Shown here: one piece after another, positions 4,315 to 7,232 of the stretch
Layout: each line of letters opens with the position of its first letter
Position numbering within the stretch: the stretch's first letter is position 1
NCBI GenBank assembly: GCA_965204755.1
Contig: OZ242011.1
Coordinates: 2,144,001 to 2,208,000 of the forward strand
Direction: 5' to 3'
Length of the DNA: 64,000 bases
Source of the DNA: Candidatus Marinacidobacterium sp.
Lineage (GTDB): Bacteria > Acidobacteriota > Vicinamibacteria > Marinacidobacterales > Marinacidobacteraceae
The notes under the pieces: model-generated
Told to the model about the DNA's origin: nothing
Seen by the model: only the letters and a program-made list of their open reading frames with translations
Database searches by the model: none
Position numbers and translations under genes: made by a program

Positions 4315-7232
4315 CTACTGCAGCCGCTGCTGGCGGCCGTGGTCTTCGCGGGCGAGGCGGGCCAGTTCGGGCCATGAGGTGACGAGGGTGTTGTAGACGC
4401 GTGCCTCCGCGGCCCGCTTCTGCCGGTCGCAGATCGCGTAGAGCCGGTAGGCGAGGTCCCTCGCCGCCTCCGCCTGCCCGCCGATCCTCCGCAGCAACTG
4501 GCCGGCGGCGAGTTCGCCGTCCCCTTCGAGCACCCGCACCAAGTGGTGGACCATCTCCCAGACCGTGAGCCTCCGGTCGGTCATGGGATCCCAGTCCTCC
4601 GGCAGTTCCTCGGGCCGCAAGAGGCGCACGCGCCCGCTGCCCTCGCGGAGGATCCCGGCTTCCACCAACCCCGCGACGCTCGTGTTCTTCGCCTTTGAGA
4701 GCGTCTCGGCGATTCCGAAGGCCGCCTCGTCAAAGTGATGCTGGCCAAACCAAGCCATTGCCCACCGAGTATCGGCGTCGAAATCGCCTTCTTTCTCTGC
4801 GAGCGCTTCGTCAAGCACTTCGTTGATCAGCGCGAGCGCATCCCCGACCGTCATTTTCTGTCCCGAAGAGTAGAGGACGCCGGAATACTGCGTAAAGACC
4901 GCCATTCCCGGCCCAATCGAGGCCTGCGCCAGATCCACGGGTGCGATGCCTGCCTTCTGTAGTTCGACGAGCGCAGGAGGCAGTGCCCTTTCAAGTATCT
5001 CCCTGAACTCGCGCCAAGTCGCCGTCCGTGCCTCGGTCGACCTCTTCCGGCATACCAGGACAATACTGGAGGCCAGGGCTGACTCTGCCTTCTTGAGATT
5101 TCCGGTGTATTCCGTCCGCATGGGCCAAGTGCCGGTAATCTCGAAACCGCAAGCGATGACGGCATCGAGAAAAGTCTCCCAACCAGTGCGTACAACACTG
5201 GAGTCCACGCCCTTTGTCTCGGCCTGCTTGAAGGCATAGTAGATGGTGACGGGGAACGCAGCGTGAGTCTGCTCGCCGAGACGCCGAATGGCTTGGGACA
5301 TTCCGCGAAGGAAGAACGCCTCTGCCTTTCGGCGACCACCATGTCGGTACGGTGTGGCCACGAGTTCCTCTGCCTTCGGCACCTCCAGCGTAGTGAAGAG
5401 ATCGGGGAATATGGAACTGACAGATGAACGGCGCAGCCAGACATAGAAGAAGTCGGACAGATCCGCGTAACCGATGTTGTCGTAGTACGGTGGATCGGTG
5501 GATACGATTTTCCTCGCACCGCCGAAGTGCGTTGCGTCCACCTGTGTTGCAGAACCAGGGGAAGTCGCCGGCAAACCCTCCAGAACTTTACCTGCCTGTT
5601 CTATTCCGGTCAGGAGGCCGCCGGAGCGCATCCCGTTGGGATTTGCTTCCGCGTAACTCCAGACCATCGGGAGGGCTTGTCGACCGAATGCGGAGACAGT
5701 AATGCTCCGACTCGTGTGCCAGAAACACAGCGACGACCAATAGTTCGCCCCCTTGTCTACCGCGAAAGCGCAGTACAGTGCTACTGCGTCAGCGTAGGCG
5801 GCGGGACCGGAGCCGCCTTCACGCAGCCGACGCACATCTGCGCCGTTGCCGCCTCTCTCTCTCTCTCTCTCTCTCTCTCTCTCTCTCTCTCTCTCTCTAC
5901 GGAGATCGCGTCCTGATGCGCCTTCTCCCGGACCTCGCCCACCAAGTCCACGAAGGTTGTCAGTGCCGTCAACTGCCGCTCGGTGAAGATATCGGCCCAG
6001 GTGAAGAAACCGTAGCCGCGCCCACTAACCAAGTTCGTGGTGTCTCGGTTCATCGCTTCGCCCGGTCGCCAGGCCGGGGCCGCCCTTCGTGCCGTCTGCT
6101 CCTGTTCCAGCGAGGGTGGCAGATAGAGTCGCTGCCGGTCGCCCTCGGCCACGATTGCCATCAGACGCGCTCCCATACGGCCGGCCATGCTCTCCGCCTT
6201 GATGTAGCTGGGCGACATCGGCGTGCCCGACATCAGGCACCGGAAACTGGCACCCCGGCCAATCTTCGTCCCGGATCGCGCCCAGTCCGGCGGCGAACCG
6301 ACTCGAACCTCGAACTGGTAGTCCTTACCCTTGATTACCGGGTTCACCCAAGCCTCCTTGCCCCTCTTCGTGGAGAGCATGAAGTTGGAGACCAGCGGCA
6401 CCTCCACTTCGGTGAAGGCTGGATTCGGACTGCACACGGTCCGCGCCCACAGCCACGCGATTACCCTCAATTTCCGACCCGCATAGCGCTCCAAGTCCAC
6501 CCGTCGCGCCGCCATCTCCGGCGTGACCCGGGCCATCGGATACAGATGTCCGATGCGCCGCTCCGCCTCGCTCTGCATCCAGTGCCCGTAATGGCGAACA
6601 TCCTCAGCTAGACCCGACGCATTCTTCCATGTCTTCCCGCCGAACGACCTCTTTCGGGACTCCGAGTTTACGGGCGGCTGCCCGGCGAACCTCGGCGGAA
6701 CCTCGATCATCGCCTTGTTTATCAAGACAGCCACCGGGTTCAGGTCGCTCGCGCCGGCATCCAAACCGAGCCGCTGGGCTTCCAACGGAATCGTCCCGCC
6801 ACCGGCGAACGGATCATGGAACGACGGAACTTGCCTCGGATCGAAGAGTTCCCCCGCGTGGGGATGGTCGGTGTTATCCGCGCAGGTCCGTCGCCAACTC
6901 TCTCGGATCTCTTCCTGGGCCGCGACGAGCAACACCTCGTTCGTCGTGTTCTCCCACTTCACGAGTTCTCGCAAGATCCCGAAAAGCCGCTCGCGCTCCT
7001 CGTCTTGCTCCAACTTGGTGGGAAACAGTTCCGGTCGGGCCGACGGGTCGTCTATCAACTGCGCGAACAGCACTGCCCGTGCGACGGCGAGCGGCTTACG
7101 CGACCACCACAGATGCAGCGTGCTCGGATGCCCGTGCCGAATGGACTTCTCCCGCGCCGCCGCCTCGTTGATCGCATCGAGCGGCAAAGCCACCTCGATG
7201 AGTTTACGAACCGTCTTCACGGCGGCAACCAC
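4315..7232 (-). pseudogene. DUF1156-family adenine DNA methyltransferase, frameshifted at an (AG)23 tract (probable phase-OFF allele)
   Basis: N-half (5781-7232): [36 protein letters not shown] and [18 protein letters not shown]-half (4315-5835): STDPPYYDNIGYADLSDFFYVWLRR and ALASSIVLVCR. The frame switch coincides with the SSR. Confidence 0.9.
5853..5898. repeat. (CT)23 / (AG)23 dinucleotide SSR inside the DUF1156 gene
   Basis: 46-nt perfect CT run counted directly; reads ERERER... on the coding strand. Confidence 0.97.

Follow-up and report, generated by a model that had tools for sequence, protein, structure and literature searches.

The window analysed here, a stretch of 64,000 nucleotides (nt) of Candidatus Marinacidobacterium sp. 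(positions 2,144,001 to 2,208,000 of contig OZ242011.1, assembly GCA_965204755.1), contains a copy of hmaB, the methyltransferase gene of the Hma anti-phage system, in which a perfect repeat of 23 AG units lies exactly where one reading frame must give way to another. We think it probable that this repeat is an on/off switch of the HmaB defence methylase, reversible and thrown at random by slipped-strand mispairing. The observations that carry this reading are the logic of the frames, the intactness of both halves of the gene, the recurrence of repeats at a single site in its homologues, the fast change of their length between homologous alleles, and the association of AG tracts with methylase genes.

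The repeat and the reading frames

On the plus strand, positions 5853-5898 read as a perfect (CT)23, and therefore as (AG)23 on the minus, coding strand, where the tract translates as (ER)n or (RE)n whichever frame is taken. The 20-nt word (AG)10 has 14 overlapping matches in the window, all of them inside this tract, and none in 100 dinucleotide-preserving shuffles of the window. The frame that enters from 7232 passes through HQDAISV into (ER)n and then runs for 23 off-frame residues to its stop; the other frame opens as (RE)n and continues through the catalytic DPPY (5496-5485) to the end of the gene. Motif I for AdoMet (S-adenosylmethionine), FAGGG, is located at 6809-6795, and the frameshift falls between the two motifs. 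As the repeat unit is not a multiple of three and stands inside an open reading frame (ORF), the number of units decides the frame: by arithmetic on the coordinates, the two frames join when the tract measures 3k+2 nt, that is, with 22 or 25 units, and 22 units give 1334 + 44 + 1535 = 2913 nt, or 971 amino acids.

The tract and its frame logic had been proposed in the original prediction, and each part was borne out: the repeat search and the translations place a perfect (AG)23 exactly where the N-half frame must become the C-half frame; translation of the 23 units ends at 5781, short of DPPY; coordinate arithmetic yields the fusion with 22 or 25 units and the length of about 971 residues; and the halves are otherwise whole, as they cover positions 2-464 (1.4e-210) and 458-958 (2.5e-207) of the 967 positions of the PADLOC HmaB profile (PDLC00660), a full-length match being reached only with the two frames joined.

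On the evidence of these profile matches the broken gene is HmaB, the DUF1156 methyltransferase, with predicted activity, of the Hma system, which was presented by Payne et al. 2021 (PMC8565338) and has been re-described as a type-1 DUF499-centred BREX-related system (PMC12839542). The DUF1156 domain (Pfam PF06634) is found at residues 15-86 of the N half (3.1e-30, 104.6 bits against a cut-off of 24), so that the earlier assignment to a DUF1156 methyltransferase stands, and what falls is only the idea of an unnamed family, since HmaB belongs to a named system. The expected association with a DUF499-type ATPase was likewise found, as HmaC adjoins hmaB.

Maintenance of the gene and nature of the linker

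The repeat-bearing hmaB genes look maintained, as judged from their sequences. In the seven repeat-bearing copies that have a C half, among those of two complete genomes described below, this half is in every case a single unbroken tblastn match of at least 470 residues; the ratio of nonsynonymous to synonymous substitution rates (dN/dS) in pairs of repeat-bearing copies is 0.16 for the N halves and 0.28 for the C halves, similar to that of repeat-free pairs (0.19-0.42). The repeat itself occupies the point of lowest conservation in the family, the linker (residues 441-460, 0.35), followed by residues 481-560, directly ahead of DPPY. In an AlphaFold model of an in-frame repeat-bearing homologue (pLDDT, the predicted local distance difference test, 71 overall; pTM, the predicted template modelling score, 0.45) the linker lies between helices 415-445 and 466-487, with a pLDDT of 62-69 there. 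A sequence search of the PDB with an intact paralogue gave no match.

Among the paralogues of a second genome of the genus (G001, loci L006-L040), the N halves are far closer to each other (up to 94% identity, dS about 0.2) than the C halves, and in one pair the N halves are 94% identical with no comparable identity in the C halves. Because the N halves are so much more alike, hmaB can be regarded as a mosaic gene with the repeat at its seam, which suggests gene conversion or the exchange of modules between HmaB paralogues, with the linker as the putative boundary.

Repeat length among copies and alleles

The source genome (3,975,858 bp, 71.7% G+C, one contig) has three close HmaB paralogues. 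The second of them has (AG)12 at this very linker codon and likewise out of frame; 11 or 14 units would fuse its frames, and thus both repeat-bearing copies of this genome are one unit over an in-frame length. This copy is found beyond hmaC-hmaA and three or four small co-oriented ORFs, so that a single hmaC-hmaA pair is flanked by two hmaB genes. The same-genus genome G001 has 13 HmaB matches, six of which contain linker repeats: (AG)42, (AG)39, (AG)27, (CT)39, (CT)33 and (AC)11(TC)15. Its seven repeat-free copies are all unbroken; of the five repeat-bearing ones in which a C half is present none is in frame, and both phases are represented. Over the two complete genomes the out-of-frame phase by tblastn is +2 in three copies and +1 in four, and a single programmed frameshift common to all the broken copies was accordingly rejected. 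The sixth repeat-bearing locus of G001, that with (CT)33 (L028, 3579214-3583542), has an HmaB N half and no C half within the locus examined; an unrelated ORF follows the N half, its start resembling a DNA-binding protein, and may be an insertion. Eight further genomes of the family showed no linker repeat in their HmaB genes, and in 80 HmaB loci from many phyla the only one was that of a G001 locus.

The same site is occupied again and again in the metagenomic homologues. A protein search, of which 120 full-length and 120 N-half-sized hits were examined (two lists that are not comparable samples), returned three full-length hits with in-frame HT/SL repeats at the linker, coded by (CA)n(CT)n, and 20 N-half-sized hits with linker repeats of the types ER, HT-SL or LS (19 flagged by script, P0133 by eye), of which 19 end just past the repeat and one reads through. 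In all, about 23 metagenome homologues bear linker repeats, four of them in frame (P0003, P0018, P0020 and P0129). Repeats of variable length at the position of the tract, ER and other dinucleotide-coded types, which had been suggested as a check of the switch, are therefore present. When 252 N halves were placed in a tree, the repeat-bearing tips, 32 in number, all fell into one clade of 96 tips (support 0.999), in which they are mixed with repeat-free tips, and the motif types with each other.

The rate of change can be appreciated in the eight multi-member 90% clusters of repeat-bearing proteins, all of which were read. The repeats differ in length in six of the eight allele pairs, whose N parts share an identity of 96.9% or more: those of P0133 and P0255 (473 of 474 residues identical) and of P0247 and P0249 (424 of 429) are 12 nt apart, and P0125 and P0250 leave the repeat in different frames; the other two pairs have no repeat difference, one of them being formed by the (AG)12 copy of the source genome and its sole counterpart. 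These comparisons show that linker repeats are quick to change in length among homologues, and that in-frame as well as out-of-frame states exist there. The window copy had no allele in the protein collection searched.

How the switch would operate

During replication, slipped-strand mispairing would add or remove AG units, making the tract a hypermutable contingency repeat, and we infer that its length would vary among cells at the window locus. One length in three would join the N half, with DUF1156 and motif I, to the C half, with its variable module and DPPY, in a 971-residue HmaB with a Glu-Arg loop; at the remaining lengths, the assembled 23 among them, translation would end between motif I and DPPY. 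An insert of varying length should be tolerated, because the linker is the least conserved stretch and is predicted to form a loop between two helices. If HmaB works like the methylase of the related MANTIS system, it would supply the sequence recognition for methylation and restriction by HmaA and HmaC, and the OFF state would silence Hma without self-harm, the latter because loss of the MANTIS methylase is not toxic. Two separately switched hmaB copies would then give four specificity states, varying both the specificity of defence and the methylome. Of the stochastic switching of a DUF499-associated methyltransferase that had been proposed, the frame switch in an otherwise intact gene is upheld by the frames, the halves and the length variation of homologues; its effect on methylome or defence is what the analogy leads one to expect. 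Because the gene is set in a defence island, the switching of defence and of its specificity is a more economical reading than the control of a regulon (a phasevarion).

Weighing the readings

Several observations weigh against a working switch. Firstly, of 16 public runs listed 13 contain the stretch, all as Logan contigs and with no RNA run among them; the length was checked at the locus in the k=31 contigs of four of these runs, over a 20-kb stretch with both hmaB tracts, and these contigs stop at both tracts without a readable length; the graph breaks because a 30-mer of tract plus ACGGA is present in both hmaB copies, and for this same reason the contig break at the shorter (AG)12 tract was rejected as a sign of heterogeneity. 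Secondly, of the seven copies in the two complete genomes that have both a repeat and a C half none is in frame, where one third would be expected at random (chance about 0.06); a preference for the OFF state, decay, or expression that relies on slippage would each fit this. In frame are only four of about 29 repeat-bearing genes overall, a count drawn from lists that are not comparable and in which some genes may appear twice. Thirdly, tracts of 23-42 units are far longer than the described cases and could reflect runaway expansion, and in the one other sequence of the (AG)12 copy the tract is just as long. The window copy is moreover parted from hmaC by an opposite-strand gene, and the AlphaFold model is of low confidence. 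Finally, the role of HmaB is not established: in the Halomonas work, as reported in PMC11232893, HmaA alone protected, and over-expression of HmaB left T4 infection unchanged.

Part of this list is what would be expected if these methylase copies were dead, with microsatellites expanding neutrally in pseudogenes and no functional switching. Such a reading would account for the absence of in-frame copies from two complete genomes, the tracts of up to 42 units and the L028 locus, in the examined part of which the C half is missing; the absence of the N half of the window copy from the protein collection is also consistent with treatment as a pseudogene. We nonetheless find it unlikely, as pseudogenes would not be expected to keep both halves unbroken, with FAGGG and DPPY, in all seven copies, nor a dN/dS of 0.16-0.28, and as there are in-frame alleles (P0003, P0018, P0020, P0129), three repeat motifs at one site over a 96-tip clade in which repeat-free genes are intermingled, and a tract-methylase association that appears again in other genera.

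It could also be that the state that is OFF in the DNA is not really off, a working enzyme being obtained through slippage of the RNA polymerase or the ribosome, or the C half being made separately from a GTG at 5835, as one piece of a two-piece enzyme. A shift of one AG unit would re-pair perfectly, to judge from the sequence, and AGA is presumably a rare codon in this GC-rich genome; the repeat-bearing copies of the two genomes are all out of frame and yet conserved, and the ORF from GTG-5835 takes in the C half, its first part overlapping the last part of the N-half ORF. However, both phases are seen, so that no single programmed shift fits, the 5835 start stands 17 nt behind the purine tract, beyond the typical distance of a ribosome-binding site, and is not conserved in the second hmaB copy, and a two-piece enzyme would put motif I and DPPY on separate chains; we give this explanation little credence. 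Least credible is an error of assembly or consensus that hides a stable, in-frame tract: long repeats are prone to such errors, and the k=31 contigs end at the window tract, but this is unlikely because of the many independent cases, namely the eight repeat-bearing copies of two independent genomes and 19 database proteins, which are broken in a like manner with both phases represented, and near-identical alleles differ by 12 nt and by frame-changing amounts.

Comparison with known systems

The reading of a reversible switch has precedents in other methylases. In Mycoplasma, the type III mod gene MmyCI is described as off with (AG)12 and on with (AG)10, and the runs of its homologues vary, several being frameshifted (PMC3498834). 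As in the source hmaB, an AG dinucleotide run lies within a methylase ORF; unlike it, the enzyme is a type III Mod and not a DUF1156 protein, the tract begins at nt 320 and so lies outside any mid-gene linker, its runs have fewer units, and the host is a low-GC host-adapted pathogen. What the Pgl system of Streptomyces coelicolor has in common with the source gene is a BREX-family defence methylase of a high-GC non-pathogen, switched by repeat length: a G tract in pglX is reported to switch at 1e-2 to 1e-4 (Sumby and Smith 2003, cited in PMC4365076); there, however, the repeat is a homopolymer, the gene a single copy and the methylase of another family. With the phasevarions, in which simple sequence repeats switch mod genes of type III and hsd genes of type I (PMC5909438, PMC7383803), the locus would share the random, repeat-driven switching of a DNA methyltransferase, and it differs from them in enzyme family and ecological setting.

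MANTIS (Gao_RL, type-2 BREX-related), from which the functional analogy is taken, also combines a DUF499 ATPase with an N6-adenine methylase, whose catalytic motif is near residue 620; the methylase is reported to direct both methylation and restriction, and its loss abolishes targeting (10.64898/2026.09.23.753747). The source locus is nonetheless distinct: the model of the MANTIS methylase (NCBIfam DUF1156_antiphage equivalog) has a cut-off of 1000 bits and gives only 67.2 and 49.8 here, a search of the source locus identified no small gene of the MtsB type, and the helicase is HmaA, not a PLD-helicase. The locus resembles Hma, on the other hand, in near full-length matches to the PADLOC HmaB, HmaC and HmaA profiles and in having other genes nested among the hma genes, as is also described in 10.1101/2024.01.29.577857; it departs from it in having two hmaB copies per hmaC-hmaA pair, both broken by repeats, and one of them behind an extra AAA+ gene and cut off from hmaC by the opposite-strand gene. 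That published survey is stated to include only loci with a single copy per gene and to exclude pseudogenes (10.1101/2024.01.29.577857), and loci with duplicated or broken hmaB are for this reason missing from it.

In the literature searched, with supplementary tables outside the search, no mention of phase variation of Hma or DUF1156 genes was found. Thus, AG-repeat switching is known from Mycoplasma mod, and a repeat-switched BREX-family methylase from Pgl, whereas such a switch in the Hma/DUF1156 family is something that we have not found described.

Repeats across the genome and the family

The whole genome has only five dinucleotide runs of six or more units, three of which reach 12 or more; these three are all AG/CT, and all of them are in DNA methylase genes, two being the hmaB tracts and the third that of a type IIG/ISP-like gene. 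This last gene (locus L003, 4770-9055, genome 2718770-2723055) is an N6 methylase with N6_Mtase, Eco57I and Type_ISP_C matches, lies in three frames broken by G21 and (GA)20, and adjoins a PLD-nuclease plus SNF2-type helicase gene. That the genome is rich in repeats because it has lost mismatch repair was considered and rejected, as MutS1 and MutL are present above cut-off.

The lengths of G/C runs are bimodal genome-wide: 45 runs have a length of 8 and five a length of 9, lengths of 10-13 are absent, and 37 runs measure 14-34. Several of these tracts are paired or clustered (for example 539246/539458, 959326/959505, and five within 84-96 kb), and in three tandem paralogues at 2.079-2.088 Mb the tract comes right behind the likely start codon. 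The longest homopolymer of the genome, G34, is found in an ORF for an N6_N4 DNA methylase, close to its 3′ end (L133, genome 1552623-1554182). Fourteen long ORFs beside G/C tracts that were compared with Pfam are mostly blank, the matches being PepX_C in two ORFs, an ADP-ribosylglycohydrolase, a phosphodiesterase, a weak AAA_16 and one N6_N4 methylase; ORF length alone cannot mark a tract as intragenic in a genome so rich in G+C.

At the level of the family, runs of G16 or longer are found in 18 of 27 other family genomes versus 6 of 33 outside the family, and (AG)10 or longer in 8 of 27 versus 3 of 33. Seven AG/TC tracts were sampled from four other family genomes (three other genera and the same-genus G001): five are in or beside methylase genes (three of the Eco57I/MmeI type, one N6_N4 and one C5), with 14-43 units (L136, L137, L139, L140 and L142, in G006, G005, G004 and G001; that of L137 in frame), and the other two are in ORFs without an assigned family. 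A wider conjecture, which we offer tentatively, is that these uncultured marine Acidobacteriota may, as a whole family, subject their DNA methyltransferases to a large “phasome” based on repeats, in which AG/CT tracts of 12-43 units and G/C tracts of 14-34 would gate type IIG, N6/N4, C5 and HmaB methylases. HmaB, expanded to up to 13 copies in which the repeat joins a conserved head to a divergent tail, could then load one HmaA-HmaC motor with different, randomly switched specificity subunits.

The locus and its surroundings

The coordinates of the features are collected in Table 1. HmaA and HmaC are matched within 9 kb, with the opposite-strand gene intervening. The gene between hmaB and hmaC is assigned to that strand because of its codon-position G+C, 0.67/0.53/0.88 on the plus strand versus 0.87/0.48/0.72 for the antisense ORF, and its true start may lie later than 1921. 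Because this gene sits on the opposite strand, the window hmaB and the IetA-like AAA+ gene upstream probably form a transcription unit of their own; the product of the latter scores 225 bits with the NCBIfam IteA model, under its 510-bit cut-off. The G+C of the hma region, 0.61-0.65 as against 0.69-0.76 in its surroundings, is as expected of an acquired defence island.

Table 1. Features of the hma locus and of the other HmaB copies in the source genome (window positions unless marked as genome)
Feature	Position	Strand	Evidence or remarks
(AG)23 simple-sequence repeat, inter-module linker of hmaB	5853..5898	-	Repeat search: perfect, 46 nt, 100% matches, score 92
hmaB N half, 483 codons as assembled, stop 5783-5781; DUF1156 and AdoMet motif I	5781..7232	-	Pfam, PADLOC
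hmaB C half, other frame, stop 4317-4315, catalytic DPPY	4315..5853	-	PADLOC, translation
hmaC 5′ part, DUF499-type AAA+ ATPase, continuing past window start	1..2378	-	PADLOC HmaC 5.3e-228
Opposite-strand gene between hmaB and hmaC, P-loop NTPase	1921..3918	+	Weak AAA_22 (Pfam 3.6e-07) and AAA_35 matches
AAA+ ATPase gene, IetA-like, 17 nt upstream of hmaB	7249..8700	-	Pfam AAA 2.3e-30; PADLOC IetA 1.7e-142
hmaA, helicase-nuclease, beyond hmaC	genome 2139259-2142831	-	PADLOC HmaA E=0, 1495 bits
Second hmaB, (AG)12 at same linker codon (tract at genome 2134976-2134999)	genome 2133432-2136385	-	Own-genome search; 15 kb from window copy
Third HmaB copy (P0013), no repeat, intact	genome 242115-244979		Among housekeeping genes

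Divergent from the AAA+/hmaB unit, at 8807-11887 of the window on the plus strand, is a gene for an SNF2 helicase with a DUF3670 domain, whose best match, below cut-off, is the NCBIfam SCO1167 family; it is not HmaA, the profile of which it matches at only 7e-17. Further along the window there are other repeats. A C23 homopolymer (26534-26556) has flanks resembling those of the C19 tract at genome position 90135, so that the two are paralogous loci; the ORFs that span it have no Pfam family, and a downstream minus-strand reading resembles a membrane segment. A degenerate tandem array of 1.1 kb (18013-19127), with periods of about 32, 64 and 218 around a GTGTCGATCCGCGCG-like core, is not CRISPR-like, because the stretches between the cores are also repeated, and Lys/Ala/Arg-rich coding repeats at 12699-13157, with periods of 15-51, recall a histone-like basic repeat protein.

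Implications

Repeat-driven switching of methylases has been studied mostly in host-adapted pathogens, and the present case concerns the BREX-related Hma family in an uncultured, high-GC marine lineage with MutS and MutL intact and with tracts of unusual length. The natural ON and OFF alleles would offer a direct handle on the function of HmaB, a methylase with no established role, and surveys that discard duplicated or “pseudogene” hma genes would miss variation of this kind. If the family-wide phasome is true, these bacteria would have a combinatorial and reversible repertoire of defence and of methylomes, beyond the host-adapted pathogens.

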